DNA of 64,000 bases from an uncultured Bacilli bacterium. GTDB taxonomy: Bacteria; Bacillota_I; Bacilli_A; RF39; UBA660. Numbering within the stretch: the first letter of the stretch is position 1; each line of letters starts with the position of its first letter. Made by a program: the position numbers and the translations under genes. The stretch spans positions 300 through 64,299 of the forward strand of contig CALVHI010000001.1 of assembly GCA_944327365.1 (NCBI GenBank), given 5' to 3'. The notes under the pieces are model-generated. The model had not been told where the DNA came from, did no database searches, and saw only the letters and a list, made by a program, of their open reading frames with translations. Positions 2,637 to 44,605 of the stretch are shown one piece after another.

Positions 2637-2723
2637 TGGTGCCTGTGGTGGGACTCGAACCCACACGATATTGCTACCACTGGATTTTGAGTCCAGCGCG
2701 TCTACCAATTCCGCCACACAGGC
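2637..2723 (-). tRNA. tRNA-Leu (anticodon CAA), long variable arm
   Basis: Reverse complement folds as GCCTGTG acceptor stem, D-arm GCGGAATTGGTAGACGC, anticodon loop CTCAAAA, long variable arm, T-arm GGTTCGAGTCC, 3' ACCA. Confidence 0.9.
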
Positions 2724-2809: not shown

Positions 2810-3400
2810 ATGATATTAATGTCTATTTTGTTATTAATCTTATTTTTAATATGGTCTATCCTAATGAAAAAAGGATATTTAATTAAATTAGATCAGAGCT
2901 TTTATAATATTATTCATATAGCCCAATATAAAACGATACTATTGATATGTATAACATTTCTAGCCAGTGCTAAATTTATCGCTTTCCTCTGCCTATGTTC
3001 TTTCATTTTTTTACAAAACAAAGCAATGTCTTTAATAATAATCATAAATATACTAATCATGTGGGGATTAATTGGAATATTAAAAAACATATTCAAAAGA
3101 GAAAGGCCAAACATAAATCGCCTAGTAAAAGAAAAAGGATATAGCTATCCATCAGGGCACACCATGACAGCTTTAATATTTTATGGATTACTAATCTTCT
3201 TTTTAATCTTAAGTAGTTTATTTCTACCAATTAAGATCTTTTTAATTCTTGTCTTATGCATTCTGATTTTATTTGTAGCTTATTCTCGTATTTATTTAGG
3301 TGTTCATTATTTAAGTGATGTAATAGGAGCACTATTTTTTGGCAGTGGCTACATTTTATTATACATTTACTTTACTTATTTTGTCTTAAATGTTTTATAA
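2810..3400 (+). CDS. PAP2 family phosphatase (undecaprenyl-diphosphatase-like)
   Basis: PAP2 motifs KRERPN...PSGHT...SRIYLGVHYLSDV in a polytopic membrane protein. Confidence 0.7.
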   Translation: MILMSILLLILFLIWSILMKKGYLIKLDQSFYNIIHIAQYKTILLICITFLASAKFIAFLCLCSFIFLQNKAMSLIIIINILIMWGLIGILKNIFKRERPNINRLVKEKGYSYPSGHTMTALIFYGLLIFFLILSSLFLPIKIFLILVLCILILFVAYSRIYLGVHYLSDVIGALFFGSGYILLYIYFTYFVLNVL

Positions 3401-4881: not shown

Positions 4882-4914
4882 AAAGGATTACGAAAAGTAG
4901 TCCTTTATTTTTGC
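4882..4914 (+). terminator. Rho-independent terminator after the LCP gene
   Basis: AAGGATTAC gaaaa GTAGTCCTT followed by a T-rich tract. Confidence 0.4.
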
Positions 4915-4917
4915 TTT

Positions 4918-5181
4918 ATAGGAAAACACTTTCAATAGAATTTATGCGCATAAATACATATTCGTACATTCTACAGAAAATAAATACCGTTTGGCTATCC
5001 AGATTTTGCTTCATATAGAATACTTTGATATCTTTTGGCCAATTTATCAGGGATGATTATAATGAAAATGCATAGAGCTTATCAATTTCATTTATATTTA
5101 AATAAGGAAGTTAAGATAAAAGGATATTAAGGTCTGTGGTGTAAAAAATACAGCAAAACAACATAAGTTAATTCTTATGTT
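4918..5181 (+). mobile_element. Miniature IS200/IS605-derived element (TnpB remnant), copy 1
   Basis: Left end TATAGGAAAACAC. Decayed TnpB N-terminus MKMHRAYQFHLYLNKE. Right end ggtctgtggtgtaaaaaatacagcaaaacaacataagttaattcTTATGTT. Homologous to the copies at 25268 and 30246. Confidence 0.55.
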
Positions 5182-6003
5182 TTATAAGCGAAAAAAATTA
5201 ATAGATGGTTGATTAAAAAGTCTAAATCCAAAATTTTGAGTCCCAATTCCATTAGAAATATAAAGCTTTTTTCCCTCTACTTCATAATATTCATTAATGT
5301 AAGTATTCGCTCCATCACGCTTAATGATCCCTCCTAAAAAAGGTATTTTAATTTGTCCACCCAAAGAATGGCCTGCTAAAACAAGGTTACTGTTAGGAAT
5401 ATTTTTGATTAAATCAGGCTTATGCATAATTGTAATCGTATAATAATTGGGATTATATAAGTCATCAATATCTTTAGAATGACTCAAGCCAACAAATTGT
5501 ATAGGCTCACTACATTGATCATAAACTAGCTTTACTTCATTATCTAATAATATAAAATTACTATCTTCTAAAATAGTTTGATAAACGTCCAAATAGGCTT
5601 CATCATGATCACCAATAACAGCAAACTTAAATAGGCGAGCTTCTAACTGATCAAGATATTTTGTTAGTAAGCTCACATCCTCATCTGAAACATTTTTAGA
5701 TTCAAATAGATCTCCAGTAAAGACAATAATATCAGGATTTATCAAATTAATTTCTTGAACTAGTTTTTTAATATCATCTATAAAAGTTGTCATCCCGTAA
5801 TGTAAATCTGAAAAATGTACAATCTTAAGTCCTTGATAAGCTTGATTTAGCTCTTCATCATAAATGGCTATTTCATGAACTTTTAATCCATGAGTATTTA
5901 TATATTTAGCATAAACAAAAAGAAGGGCAAAGAAAATAATTACAAAAACCAAAACCTTAATAAATCTTCTTGGCTTTACTTTAACCTTAACACTCTTATT
6001 CAT
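5182..6003 (-). CDS. Membrane-anchored metallophosphoesterase (calcineurin-like)
   Basis: N-terminal TM segment. Motifs HFSDLHYG, GDLF, GDHD, GHSLGGQ. Confidence 0.75.
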   Translation of the reverse strand: MNKSVKVKVKPRRFIKVLVFVIIFFALLFVYAKYINTHGLKVHEIAIYDEELNQAYQGLKIVHFSDLHYGMTTFIDDIKKLVQEINLINPDIIVFTGDLFESKNVSDEDVSLLTKYLDQLEARLFKFAVIGDHDEAYLDVYQTILEDSNFILLDNEVKLVYDQCSEPIQFVGLSHSKDIDDLYNPNYYTITIMHKPDLIKNIPNSNLVLAGHSLGGQIKIPFLGGIIKRDGANTYINEYYEVEGKKLYISNGIGTQNFGFRLFNQPSINFFRL

Positions 6004-25231: not shown

Positions 25232-25262
25232 AAAAAATTCAGATTAATTTCTGAATTTTTTT
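25232..25262 (+). terminator. Rho-independent terminator after hup
   Basis: AATTCAGA ttaattt TCTGAATT TTTTT. Confidence 0.5.
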
Positions 25263-25267
25263 ATCTT

Positions 25268-25716
25268 ATAGGAAAGTACAGAAAAACGTGTATTTTAAAA
25301 TTTTACTCTTAAAGAACATATGTATTTATAGTATGATGCTATTATCAGGGGTGATAATGAATATGAAAATACATAAAGCTTATAAATTTCGTTTGTATCC
25401 AACAAAAGAACAAATAGTATTAATTCGTAAAACTTTTGGATTTGTAATAGATGTGGAAATAAAGATAAAGTTTTGAAAGATTTAAGAATAAGAGAATATC
25501 GCTGTAGCAAATGTGGTTTAGAAATAGAAAGAGATTATAATGCAAGTATCAATATATTAAATGAAGGATTAAGAGGTTACAATAATTAAATTAAAATAGA
25601 AAAAATAAAGAAGTACGGGAGCAACTCTCGGAAATGAGGTCTGTTATGTAAGAAATTACAGCAGAAAAAAACGAACCGTGAGGTTCGGCGGATTAACGTA
25701 AGTTAATTCTTATGTT
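25268..25716 (+). mobile_element. Miniature IS200/IS605-derived element with decayed TnpB (N- and C-terminal fragments) and a conserved RNA-like right end, copy 2
   Basis: Left end TATAGGAAAGTACAG. TnpB N-terminal fragment MKIHKAYKFRLYPTKEQ. C-terminal zinc-finger fragment REYRCSKCGLEIERDYNASINILNEG in another frame. Right end gaagtacgggagcaactctcggaaatgaggtctgttatgtaag...aaccgtgaggttcggcggattaacgtaagttaattcTTATGTT. Confidence 0.6.
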
Positions 25717-25752
25717 CTGTAATGAAAAGAGAATGTAAAGAAAATAATTCAT

Positions 25753-26076
25753 CTATTTTCTAACATCCCCATTTTTATTTTGATCATAAAGCTTATATAA
25801 ATATTTTATTCTAGCTTCAAGTTTAAAGTAGTAAATAATATAAGGAATTAAAAAACAAATCATGAATAAAGCAAAAATAAAATATATTACAGAATCTTTA
25901 ATATGACAAATAAATATAACAGTAAACGAAGCATAAAAAAGAGTAATAATTAAATGAATAAGCCTCTCTTTATTAAAAAAATCAATCTTAATAAGCATTT
26001 CCTTTTCTAAATTATTTTCTTTATTCTTAATTTTTTCTTCTACTTCCCTAATATAAAAATCGATATATTCTTTCAT
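25753..26076 (-). CDS. Small two-TM membrane protein, hypothetical
   Basis: 107-aa ORF with hydrophobic core. Confidence 0.35.
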   Translation of the reverse strand: MKEYIDFYIREVEEKIKNKENNLEKEMLIKIDFFNKERLIHLIITLFYASFTVIFICHIKDSVIYFIFALFMICFLIPYIIYYFKLEARIKYLYKLYDQNKNGDVRK

Positions 26077-28413: not shown

Positions 28414-30215
28414 TGGCAAGACGTATGGGTGGTCCTGGGGCAGTTGAGAAAGCTCGCGATTTTAAAGGGACATTAAAAAAATTTTTAAAAGTAATCTCAG
28501 AATACAAAATCTTACTCATCATAGCTTTTCTATTCGCTATAGGTAGTACAATTTTTGCAATTGTTTCTCCTAAAATATTAGGAAATGCAACAACTGAAAT
28601 TTATAATGGTCTTATTGCTAAAATAAATGGTACAGGATCTATTGATTTTAATGCAATTAAAACAATTTTAATTTGTTTAGCAGTATTATATATTGTAAGT
28701 GCAATATTTAATTATATACAAAATTTAATTATGACCCATGTCTCACAAAGGGCTAGTTATAAATTAAGAAAAGAAATATCTCACAAACTACATCGTTTAC
28801 CAATGAGTTATTTTGATCATCAAAACACTGGAGATATCATGTCTGTAATTACGAATGATATTGATACTTTGCAATTAAACTTAAATCAATCAGCGACTCA
28901 ACTTGTATCATCCATTGTTACTTTAATAGGAATATTTATTATGATGTGTACGATTAGTGTACCCTTAGCAATAATAACAGCTTTAGTTTTACCAGTTGCT
29001 AGTTTGATTGTTATGTTGATTGTTAAAAAAAGTCAAAAGCACTTCTTTAATCAACAAAATTATTTAGGATATGTAGATGGCGAAGTAGAAGAAATGATTA
29101 GTGGGCATACAGTTATCAAAGCTTTTAATGCAGAAGAAAAATCAATGAAAAATTTTGATAGAGATAATGAATTATTATGCACAGCAAGCTATAAAGCTCA
29201 ATTCTTATCTGGATTAATGCATCCAATCATGAATTTTGTTGCTAATCTAAATTACACGATCATAGCTATCATTGGAGCAATTTTTGCCATAAATGGTAAA
29301 ATAACTATCGGTAACATTCAAAGTTTCATTCAATACTCTAGAAACTTCACTAATCCAATCGCTCAACTAGCCCAAATATCTAGTTTAATTCAAAGTATGA
29401 TGGCAGCTAGTGAAAGAGTGTTTAATTTCTTAAGTTTAGAAGAATATATAGATGAAGGAACAAAAGATTGCAACAATGTTAAAGGAAATATTGAATTTAA
29501 ACATGTAAGGTTTGGCTATAATAAAGATAAAATGATTATTAAGGATTTTAATGCTTCGATAAAAAGTGGACAAAAAATTGCTATTGTAGGTCCAACTGGA
29601 GCCGGAAAAACAACAATAGTTAAATTACTAATGCGCTTTTATGAATTAAATGGCGGAGAAATCTTATTAGATGGCTTAAATATTAAAGATTATAAACGGG
29701 AATATTATGAAACCGTATTTGCTATGGTTCTACAAGATACATGGCTATTTAATGGAACAATTTTAGATAATTTACGTTATGGTAATTTAAATGCTTCAGA
29801 TAAAGAAATAATAGATGCAGCGAAAACTGCTAATGCAGATTTCTTCATTAGAACTTTACCTGAAGGCTATAATTCACTGATTAATGAAGAGACAAATAAT
29901 ATTAGTGGTGGTCAAAAACAATTATTAACCATAGCCAGAGCTATTGTTAAAAACCCTAAAGTTTTAATTTTAGATGAAGCAACGAGCAATGTTGATACTC
30001 GTACAGAAGAATTAATTGGTAAAGCAATGGATAAAGTAATGGAAGGAAGAACATCGTTTATTATAGCGCATCGCTTATCAACAATAAAAAATGCTGATTT
30101 AATATTAGTAATGGATGAAGGCGATATTGTAGAAATAGGCCGTCATGAAGAATTATTAGAAAAAAATGGCTTCTATGCTAAAATATATAATTCTCAATTC
30201 GAAAAAGTTTCATAA
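28413..30215 (+). CDS. ABC exporter, fused permease/ATP-binding subunit (heterodimer partner 2)
   Basis: TMD + NBD with GPTGAGKTT, SGGQKQ, LILDEATSNVD. Start overlaps the previous stop (TAATG). Confidence 0.85.
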   Translation: MARRMGGPGAVEKARDFKGTLKKFLKVISEYKILLIIAFLFAIGSTIFAIVSPKILGNATTEIYNGLIAKINGTGSIDFNAIKTILICLAVLYIVSAIFNYIQNLIMTHVSQRASYKLRKEISHKLHRLPMSYFDHQNTGDIMSVITNDIDTLQLNLNQSATQLVSSIVTLIGIFIMMCTISVPLAIITALVLPVASLIVMLIVKKSQKHFFNQQNYLGYVDGEVEEMISGHTVIKAFNAEEKSMKNFDRDNELLCTASYKAQFLSGLMHPIMNFVANLNYTIIAIIGAIFAINGKITIGNIQSFIQYSRNFTNPIAQLAQISSLIQSMMAASERVFNFLSLEEYIDEGTKDCNNVKGNIEFKHVRFGYNKDKMIIKDFNASIKSGQKIAIVGPTGAGKTTIVKLLMRFYELNGGEILLDGLNIKDYKREYYETVFAMVLQDTWLFNGTILDNLRYGNLNASDKEIIDAAKTANADFFIRTLPEGYNSLINEETNNISGGQKQLLTIARAIVKNPKVLILDEATSNVDTRTEELIGKAMDKVMEGRTSFIIAHRLSTIKNADLILVMDEGDIVEIGRHEELLEKNGFYAKIYNSQFEKVS

Positions 30216-30216
30216 G

Positions 30217-30240
30217 ATACTAGAAATAGTATCTTTTTTA
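30217..30240 (+). terminator. Rho-independent terminator after the ABC operon
   Basis: GATACTA gaaa TAGTATC TTTTTT. Confidence 0.5.
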
Positions 30241-30245
30241 GTGTG

Positions 30246-30542
30246 ATAGGAAAGTACACGTTTTTGCGCGCCTGCATGTGTAGAAGAAGTATATCTCAAA
30301 CTAAAAAAATCTCGAAAAAAGGGCAGTGGAGGGAGTAGTAAAAGCAATCATATCATCACAAAAATGTAGCAAATGCGGGTTAGAAATAAAGAATGATTAT
30401 AAATGCAAATATAAATATATCAAAAGAGGGGTTGCAATATTTAAGTAATTAGATTAAAATAAAAATATAGAACAAAAAGAAGTACGAAAGCAAGACTTCA
30501 AAGAACCGTAAGATTCGGGGAATGTTCATTATATTTTATGTT
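30246..30542 (+). mobile_element. Miniature IS200/IS605-derived element, copy 3 (internally deleted)
   Basis: Left end ATAGGAAAGTACACG. Zinc-finger remnant SKCGLEIKNDYKCK. Right end gaagtacgaaagcaagacttcaaagaaccgtaagattcgggg...ATTTTATGTT. Confidence 0.5.
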
Positions 30543-30569
30543 ATAATGATAATTGAAAGAAGTGAGTAT

Positions 30570-35897: not shown

Positions 35898-35974
35898 GGG
35901 CGCTTAGCTCAGTTGGTTAGAGCACCTGCCTTACAAGCAGGGGGTCATAGGTTCGAGTCCTATAGCGCCCACCA
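35898..35974 (+). tRNA. tRNA-Val (anticodon TAC)
   Basis: GGGCGCT acceptor stem, D-arm GCTCAGTTGGTTAGAGC, anticodon loop CTTACAA, T-arm GGTTCGAGTCC, ACCA. Confidence 0.9.
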
Positions 35975-35985
35975 TTGTTTTTTTT

Positions 35986-36061
35986 GCCGACATAGCGTAA
36001 CTGGCAGCGCAACTGACTTGTAATCAGTAGGTTGGGGGTTCGACTCCCTCTGTCGGCACCA
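35986..36061 (+). tRNA. tRNA-Thr (anticodon TGT)
   Basis: GCCGACA acceptor stem, anticodon loop CTTGTAA, T-arm GGTTCGACTCC, CCA. Confidence 0.85.
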
Positions 36062-36070
36062 TTTAATTAT

Positions 36071-36154
36071 GGGGAGATAGCGAAGTGGCCAAACGCGGCA
36101 GACTGTAAATCTGTTCCTTCGGGTTCCATGGTTCGAATCCATGTCTCCCCACCA
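36071..36154 (+). tRNA. tRNA-Tyr (anticodon GTA), long variable arm
   Basis: GGGGAGA acceptor stem, anticodon loop CTGTAAA, long variable arm, T-arm GGTTCGAATCC, CCA. Confidence 0.85.
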
Positions 36155-36163
36155 CTTTAATAT

Positions 36164-36239
36164 TGCCTCGTAGCCAAGTGGTAAGGCATCAGACTTTGAC
36201 TCTGACATTCCGCTGGTTCGAACCCAGCCGAGGCAGCCA
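36164..36239 (+). tRNA. tRNA-Gln (anticodon TTG)
   Basis: TGCCTCG acceptor stem, anticodon loop CTTTGAC, T-arm GGTTCGAACCC, CCA. Confidence 0.85.
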
Positions 36240-36244
36240 TACTT

Positions 36245-36320
36245 GGTTCGCTAGCTCAGTAGGTAGAGCATTTGACTTTTAATCAAAGGGTCGAGGGTTC
36301 GAATCCCTCGCGAGCCACCA
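36245..36320 (+). tRNA. tRNA-Lys (anticodon TTT)
   Basis: GGTTCGC acceptor stem, D-arm GCTCAGTAGGTAGAGC, anticodon loop CTTTTAA, T-arm GGTTCGAATCC, CCA. Confidence 0.9.
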
Positions 36321-42336: not shown

Positions 42337-44445
42337 ATGTATCCAAATATGGGGGAAGAAAACGAAAATGTTTTGGAAAAATATGGACGCGATATTACTG
42401 AAGCAGTAAGACTTAATAAGGTTGATCCAGTTATTGGTAGAGATGATGAAATACGTAGCATTATTCGTATATTATCAAGAAAAACAAAGAATAATCCCGT
42501 ATTAATTGGTGAACCTGGAGTTGGTAAAACAGCAATTGTTGAAGGACTTGCCATTCGTATTACGAAAGGTGATGTACCAAGTACTTTAAAAGGAAAGAAA
42601 ATATGGTCTCTTGATTTAGGTGCTTTAATTGCAGGTGCTAAATACCGTGGTGAATTTGAAGAGCGTCTAAAAAAAGTTCTAAAAGAAATTAGTGATTCAA
42701 ACGGGGATATCATATTATTTATAGATGAAATACACATGATTGTTGGAGCTGGTGCCGAAGGAGCTATGGATGCTGGTAACATGTTAAAACCAATGCTAGC
42801 CAGAGGAGAAATTAGACTAATTGGTGCTACTACTCTAAACGAATATCGTAAGTATATAGAAACTGATGGAGCTTTAGAGCGTCGTTTACAAAAAATAATG
42901 GTCAAAGAACCAAATGTTGAGGATACTATTACGATATTGCGTGGCTTAAAAGAAAAGTTTGAATTATTTCATAGTGTCAACATCAAAGATAGTGCTTTAA
43001 TTAGTGCAGCAACACTTAGTGATCGGTATATAACGGATCGATACCTACCAGATAAAGCAATTGATTTAGTAGATGAAGCATGTGCTACGATAAAAATGCA
43101 AATGGCATCTGTTCCTACGGAACTAGACACATTAACTCGTAAAATTATGAGTCTAGAAATTGAGCGTGAAGCTATTAAGAAAGAAAAAGATGAACTATCG
43201 AAAGCTCGTAAAGCAGAACTTGACAATGAAATAACAAGTCTAAAAGAGGAAGAAGCCAAAATGCGTTCTAAGTGGGAAGAGGAAAAGAATTTAAATGATG
43301 ATATTAACAAGAAAAAAGAAGAATTAGATAATGCTAAATTTAAACTAGAAACTGCAGAAAATAACTATGATTTAGAAACTGCTGCTCGTCTTCGCCATGG
43401 GGAAATCCCTAAGTTAGAGACTGAACTTGAAGCGCTCCGAAGTAAAATAGATTCACAAATGTTAAGTGATACAGTTACCGAGGAAGATATAGCCAAAATT
43501 GTTGCTAAATGGACGAATATTCCTATTCAAAAATTAGTAAGTGGGGAAAAAGAAAAACTTCTCAGTCTAGAAGCTAACTTAAAAAAGAAAGTAATTGGCC
43601 AAGATGAAGCAGTTAAAGTCGTAAGTGATGCCATTATTAGAGCTAGAAGTGGAATCAAAGACCCGAATAGACCAATCGGATCATTTATATTCATGGGTCC
43701 AACTGGTGTTGGTAAAACCGAACTAGCAAAAGCTTTAGCTTATGAATTATTTGATGATGAACGTCACATGGTAAGAATAGACTGTTCTGAATACATGGAA
43801 GCATTCAATGTATCTAGACTTCTAGGAGCCCCTCCAGGATATGTAGGATATAACGAAGGTGGCGAACTTACAGAAGCCGTAAGAAGAAACCCCTATAGTA
43901 TTGTTTTGTTTGATGAAATCGAAAAAGCTCATCCCGATGTATTTAACATATTACTTCAAATCCTAGATGATGGACGTATTACAGATAGTACAGGAAAACT
44001 AGTAGACTTTAAAAATACAATTATTATAATGACATCAAATTTAGGAAGTGAATATATTCTTGATAATGAAGAAAATAATGAATCTAAAGTAATGAACGCT
44101 TTAAAAGAACATTTCCGTCCAGAATTTATTAATCGTATTGATGAAATAGTAATCTTTAAATCTTTAGGAAAAGAAGTTATTTATAATATTCTTGATAAGA
44201 TTATTCATGAAACGGAATCAAGACTTAAAAATATTAATTTACACTTAGAATTAACTGAAAAAGCAAAAGATTACATCATTGCTCACTCATATGATGAAGC
44301 CTATGGAGCAAGACCAATAAAACGTTATGTAACGCATCATATTGAAACACTTTTAGCAGATAAGATTATTAAAGATGAAATAAAATATAATGACACGCTA
44401 ATTGTTGATGTAAATAATGACCAACTAGAAATAAGTCAGGAATAA
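42337..44445 (+). CDS. clpB: ATP-dependent chaperone ClpB lacking the N-terminal domain (starts at AAA-1)
   Basis: Both AAA modules (GEPGVGKT; GPTGVGKTE), coiled-coil middle domain, C-terminal domain. 702 aa beginning LEKYGRDIT..., so the ~150-aa Clp_N domain is absent. Confidence 0.9.
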
Positions 44446-44605
44446 CCTGGCTTTTTTCATATAAAGCATAAAAAAGTGCTATAATAAATCTTATTTTTAT
44501 TTGCCCTAAATTCAATTATCATAAAAAATTAAACATTTAACCTTTACAAAAAGAGTATAATTTACTATAATGTTATTATCGCAAATAAAAATAGGAGTTG
44601 AAAAA

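Follow-up and report, generated by a model that had tools for sequence, protein, structure and literature searches.

ISDra2 has TTGAT as its target and TAM. Palindrome-associated transposable elements (PATEs) occur as families of similar copies that have spread in miniature form. The guide RNA of TnpB (reRNA or omega RNA) lies on the tnpB strand, overlaps the 3' end of tnpB and ends where the transposon does (PMC8612924). PATEs are protein-less IS200/IS605 derivatives described in Geobacillus stearothermophilus and haloarchaea, and use in trans of the omega RNAs of such PATE-like derivatives was proposed (PMC10055086).

Three segments (A, B and C) of the 64,000-nt stretch of DNA analysed here (the window) had been put forward in a preliminary description as decayed miniature IS200/IS605 elements with conserved ends. 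The segments and every string quoted from them were present in the window where they had been placed. Profile matches, Pfam matches and the collinear order of the segments agreed with it that the three copies were remnants of a TnpB-bearing IS200/IS605-type element (Table 1). A profile built from the DNA of nine full-length relatives matched B with E=2.7e-74 and 3.8e-43 and C with E=2.3e-18 and 1e-5; A was found by this profile with filters off only (E=1.6e-7 and 3.6e-5, 351-nt target) and by blastn with 82% identity over 66 nt (E=1.6e-11). Relic peptides of B matched Pfam HTH_OrfB_IS605 (2.8e-10) and the TnpB/Cas12f zinc-ribbon domain (1.7e-10), and the tnpB domain fragments of the window copies came from the first and third domains only. 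Resemblance by chance among AT-rich intergenic stretches might be suspected, as the window has a G+C content of 28% and many weak AT-rich blast matches appeared, but its probability is negligible given profile E-values to 1e-74, relic peptides that match Pfam domains and segments collinear with the full-length element.

Pairwise local alignment gave significant matches between A and B in two places, the ribosome-binding site with the first codons of tnpB (69 nt, 78%) and the right tip (35 nt, 86%), and between B and C in one, the 3' end of tnpB with the beginning of the right end (129 nt, 74%); a global MAFFT alignment of the three was uninformative on account of their large deletions. The right terminus was conserved as described and longer by one base, ending in TTATGTTC at 25717. 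Only in B was this GC-richer, conserved right end complete; A was without helices 1, 3 and 4, and C was without helices 1 and 2, with helix 4 ruined. Neither the DNA profile nor the right-end covariance model revealed a fourth copy in the window, the latter giving nothing above noise besides B, A and C. A weak model match at 44426-44498, 3' of a ClpB-like gene, was a terminator only.

Table 1. Positions of copies A, B and C, their parts and their flanks in the window, with the corresponding parts of the full-length parent element
Feature	Position	Strand	Description
Terminator-like hairpin of LytR-family gene	4882-4906	+	Gene upstream; hairpin directly left of A
Copy A	4920-5182	+	Most eroded; variant, longer left end with palindrome ATTTATGCGCATAAAT
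A, ribosome-binding site and ~17 tnpB codons	5044-5109	+	blastn/profile; profile positions 86-150
A, right-end stub	5128-5182	+	Helix 2 and terminal TTAATTCTTATGTT only; 27 nt missing; covariance score 19.4 bits
HU gene host terminator	25232-25264	+	12-bp stem and T-tract ending TTTAT; directly left of B
Copy B	25270-25717	+	447-448 bp; profile positions 2-185 joined to 1094-1379 (nhmmer; blastn against L012)
B, left-end subterminal hairpin	25273-25296	+	Degenerate form of ATACACG-loop-CGTGTAT of full-length copies
B, putative tnpB promoter remnant	25309-25337	+	Weakened; TTAAAG-17 nt-TATGAT, read against L012
B, tnpB start remnant	25357-25476	+	MNMKIHKAYKFRLYPTKEQIVLIRKTFG, then out-of-frame junk to a stop codon
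B, tnpB C-terminus remnant	25441-25589	+	Other frame; zinc ribbon ending CSKCGLEIERDYNASINILNEGLRGYNN and stop
B, right end	25604-25717	+	Complete, four helices, omega-RNA-like; includes subterminal hairpin GGATTAAC-GTAA-GTTAATTC
Segment beyond B right end	25718-25778	+	~61 nt, ends TTTAT; similarity to empty site resumes after it
Terminator-like hairpin and T-tract of ABC-transporter gene	30214-30239	+	Gene upstream; directly left of C
Copy C	30248-30543	+	~13 nt of left end kept; covariance score 13.8 bits
C, internal tnpB fragment	30281-30341	+	Profile 831-890; absent from the preliminary description
C, tnpB 3' end and start of right end	30361-30496	+	Profile 1153-1289
C, right-end stub	30503-30543	+	Covariance/profile comparison
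Parent element, left end			Full-length copies; starts AGGAAARTACACG, with subterminal hairpin
Parent element, predicted promoter			Full-length copies; TTGACG-17 nt-TATAAT, strong, before tnpB
Parent element, right end			Full-length copies; ~115 nt, structured, after tnpB; last bases TTAATTCTTATGTTC

The parent of the three copies was a TnpB-only IS200/IS605-family element of ~1.37 kb that was common and often intact in related uncultured gut Bacilli; the reference element, in contig L012, consisted of 1368 bp and encoded a TnpB of 380 aa. When the relic peptides were used as the sole protein query, the closest database proteins were all short, truncated fragments with varied breakpoints, which suggests that decay of the parent element is widespread. 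A composite query made from two fragments reached more than 100 full-length TnpBs of 378-380 aa with 75-88% identity; intact relatives were thus present in the same lineage. A full-length relative, P0021, had all three TnpB Pfam domains (HTH_OrfB_IS605, OrfB_IS605 (RuvC) and zinc-ribbon). The 380-aa TnpB aligned end to end with the ISDra2 TnpB structures 8H1J and 8EXA (E=6e-60, ~40% identity), and all three residues matching the catalytic D191, E278 and D361 of ISDra2 TnpB were kept.

Unlike ISDra2, the element was TnpB-only, with no tnpA adjacent to any copy seen, and a rough motif search over 373 kb of related sequence detected no Y1 (HUH) TnpA. Its single tnpB between IS605-type ends is like that of IS1341-type (TnpB-only) elements, and it is presumably moved by a TnpA encoded elsewhere; unlike known IS1341-type elements, it had a nearest annotated TnpB of only ~40% identity in the plasmid collection searched. 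The 2.6-kb element of L045 was considered as a tnpA carrier and rejected: at L045:1321-2334 an unrelated IS with a 337-aa integrase-type transposase was nested in the TnpB element, close to the 3' end of tnpB. Subterminal hairpins were present in the full-length copies and in B (left, ATACACG-loop-CGTGTAT; right, GAATTAAC-GTAA-GTTAATTC, 8 nt from the tip), were degraded in A and C, and were accompanied by no terminal inverted repeats. Contigs frequently broke within the element, indicating that it is repetitive in these genomes. A scan with the right-end pattern returned uncultured human-gut Bacilli MAGs as hosts, and by these comparisons the parent element is an undescribed TnpB-only lineage from uncultured gut Bacilli, a finding of little import beyond annotation. 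At L012:3271-5495 a full-length element was seated within the toxin gene (AbiEii) of an abortive-infection pair of the AbiE type and split that gene into fragments.

Comparison with the full-length element showed that B equalled the parent minus one internal deletion of ~910 bp, with both ends intact; the junction, at 25440/25441, had a microhomology of 3 nt (GAT). An identical HU protein was encoded in many contigs, and in 9 of the 10 listed the convergent gene came directly after the same HU terminator, the element being absent. Since the hairpin was present at these empty sites, it belongs to the host sequence, and B is an insertion polymorphism. The B locus occurred in three forms (empty, 447-bp and 368-bp), the shortest filled form, in L036 and L052, being B with a further 79-bp deletion that removed the tnpB tail and helix 1. 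In L061, at least 560 bp of tnpB 3' coding sequence was joined to the right flank of B; its tnpB residues DLRIREYRC matched the B relic and its right end differed from that of B in helix 2, which suggests a long allele at the B locus, although this 1-kb metagenome contig may be a chimera assembled over a repeat. Among the B-bearing contigs compared, the junction of B was found at the HU locus alone. The empty HU sites, which belong to a somewhat diverged lineage, were ~61 nt shorter than the filled site after the element itself had been accounted for. Relative to the empty HU loci, this extra segment altered the C-terminus of the neighbouring 107-aa ORF.

Seven near-identical contigs were found for the A locus, and all carried copy A with the same spacing; the left-end variant of A was also present in remnants of L017 and L027. 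The spacer of C had a counterpart in contig L025 of a sister species, which was syntenic on both sides (78-85% identity); there the spacer contained a 1365-bp element whose 378-aa TnpB was intact. The left-flank hairpins at the C locus differed between the window and L025, so C and the L025 copy may be separate insertions and not one ancestral event. The hairpin left of the L025 copy (L025:6573-6646, minus strand; TTCAGA-loop-TCTGAA with A and T runs) was nearly identical to the HU terminator. The 280-nt right flank in L025 included a piece similar to the 3' end of a gene for a large surface protein.

A, B and C are very probably three independent insertions of one ~1.37-kb lineage, each eroded by internal deletions where it was seated. 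Each insertion would have landed just 3' of an intrinsic-terminator-like hairpin and T-tract. B would be young, its single deletion probably made across the microhomology, with ends intact and presence still variable among strains; C and A would be older, having undergone several deletions and many substitutions and lost most of their end structures. The ends may outlast the gene passively, because deletions running past them would damage packed neighbour genes or terminators, and a remnant would be recognisable only if an end survived. Mapped against the L012 reference and the nine-copy profile, the deletion junctions of A, B and C were all different and none was common. Preservation of the ends had been read in the preliminary description as a sign of non-autonomous mobilisation or of retention as RNA; the lack of a common junction speaks against this, as do the decay alleles of B at its own locus, the full-length element of L025 in the spacer of C and the largely destroyed right ends of A and C. 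The three copies fit a decay series at different stages, and miniature spread is unsupported for them.

Such a spread would make A, B and C PATE- or MITE-like elements moved in trans by a Y1 TnpA acting at the end hairpins. The two subterminal hairpins retained in B, the repeat nature of the element and the PATE-like IS605 relatives described before (PMC10055086) are consistent with it, and so are two miniatures, L024:6214-6400 and L027:6337-6619 (both minus strand; MAG BRZ_EP bin3), which had one internal junction in common although they lay at two loci whose flanks were unrelated. This pair runs counter to decay as the only process and indicates that miniature mobilisation does occur in the element family, in which it was the only sign of a miniature mobilised as such. 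For the window copies the explanation is improbable, since each had a unique junction, that of B occurred at the HU locus alone, A and C were without the end hairpins that TnpA would need, and the rough screen of 373 kb for Y1 TnpA was negative. A 58-aa fusion miniature (P0005) also argues against it, lying beside the same VanZ gene in 24 of 24 contigs examined. Like PATEs, the copies were short and non-coding with IS605-type ends, and B kept an omega-RNA-like right end that could be used in trans (PMC10055086); unlike PATEs, A, B and C had private deletion patterns, and A and C had lost their end structures. The same internal structure at several loci, a PATE/MITE feature, was seen in L024 and L027 only and not in A, B or C, and both ends were intact, as a PATE or MITE needs, in B only and not in A or C.

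The P0005 miniature itself (L001-L010, ~2912-3324) was 412 bp long, with an in-frame fusion of the TnpB N-terminus and C-terminus, and was always upstream of the VanZ gene. To its left the DNA varied between contigs (GmrSD/AAA_15 defence genes, PIN-TPR/TnpV or RecG-like), so the miniature marks the edge of a variable island.

The right end was placed and folded as a TnpB guide-RNA (omega/reRNA) scaffold would be, in keeping with the earlier proposal: it lay on the tnpB strand, at the boundary position, and had four helices. In 22 copies a conserved structured block on the tnpB strand overlapped the tnpB 3' end and ended at the element boundary, like the ISDra2 reRNA (PMC8612924). The 22 distinct right ends aligned into four helices with 98.4% of cells paired, compared with 32-47% in slid controls. 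Compensatory changes occurred in 4 of 28 pairs, and the copies were only 10-20% diverged, so support from covariation was modest; a metagenome scan with P0021 gave 10 loci, whose diversity was too small for strong covariation. The fold of the B right end had a z-score of -3.66. A covariance model for the right end detected B strongly (139 bits, E=1e-34) and gave only the low scores of Table 1 for A and C, while Rfam scans at gathering and permissive thresholds detected no RNA family over the copies. Only B keeps a plausible guide-RNA scaffold, and B alone could provide guide RNA for a TnpB encoded at another site; were this RNA transcribed, the first 16-20 nt of the segment beyond the right end of B would serve as its guide (PMC8612924). 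As an orphan guide gene, B would be an already-known kind of thing (PMC10055086). Unlike ISDra2, the window copies had no functional tnpB, and their right-end RNA is a predicted one.

The right ends might also have been kept because they were useful, either as orphan omega-RNA guide genes for a TnpB in trans or as terminators and promoters borrowed by neighbouring genes. The complete scaffold and fold score of B accord with this, together with a promoter-like TTAAGA-17 nt-TAAAAT just upstream of its right end and the proposed trans use of omega RNAs by PATE-like elements (PMC10055086). On the minus strand, helix 3 of B (25672-25687) formed a terminator-like hairpin followed by seven T, facing the convergent 107-aa gene, and the right-end stub of A formed a perfect 8-bp hairpin with a U-rich tail directly after the stop codon of a 273-aa gene; in C a TTGCAA-17 nt-TAAAAT motif faced the downstream gene. 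This usefulness is unlikely, however, because promoter and terminator scans gave results at or near shuffle expectation, A and C were without two or three of the four helices, and most strains were without B (9 of the 10 listed HU contigs). The natural allele without helix 1 argues against strong selection on B, and no evidence of selection for function was found in A, B or C.

Every copy lay directly 3' of a T-tract with a hairpin like that of a terminator, and all had the same orientation (window 4882-4919, 25232-25269 and 30214-30247), and the same arrangement was found in L001, L012, L017, L023, L025, L029 and L046. Of 14 distinct sites, 9 had a perfectly paired stem, 6 bp or longer, that ended within 18 nt of the element, compared with 8.3% of the TTAT sites that served as background in the window (binomial p=3e-7); this enrichment may partly reflect survivorship, as the intergenic DNA of a compact genome is mostly terminators. 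The left junction was TTTTTAT CTTAT/AGGAAA in most copies, and a T-rich flank ending in TTTAT at most of the 14 sites suggests a TTTAT-like target, which resembles the TTGAT of ISDra2. Unlike ISDra2, the insertion sites of the element were tied to terminator-like hairpins. The sole empty-site comparison for a target duplication, at the HU locus, showed the ~61 extra nt on the right side.

A tentative and rather doubtful further reading is that the lineage aims at intrinsic terminators and sometimes moves with flank DNA and, separately, that B is an orphan guide-RNA gene for a TnpB in trans. Flank carry-over is hinted at by the ~61 nt of B ending in TTTAT and by the HU-like hairpin left of the L025 copy, either of which could be adjacent flank DNA carried along, a lineage difference or a coincidence. 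If this reading were true, the T-tract after a hairpin would be a harmless, transcriptionally insulated landing site, and the B guide would let a TnpB made elsewhere cut chromosomes without B. A literature search on terminator-targeted IS200/IS605 insertion found nothing specific. The terminator link and the complete guide-RNA region of B are modest leads on target choice by TnpB and on trans-acting omega RNAs.

The copies and their relatives document, in uncultured low-GC gut Bacilli, a natural decay series of TnpB elements, from intact through one deletion and further deletions to stubs. They also call for caution, as conserved ends with the gene gone do not by themselves show function or MITE-like spread. 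Genetic code 4 had been raised by one database ORF with TGA as Trp and was rejected, the ORF statistics of the window fitting the standard bacterial code. Five clustered tRNA genes (Val, Thr, Tyr, Gln and Lys) were located at 35898-36320 of the window, and a separate tRNA-Leu at 2637-2723 (minus strand).
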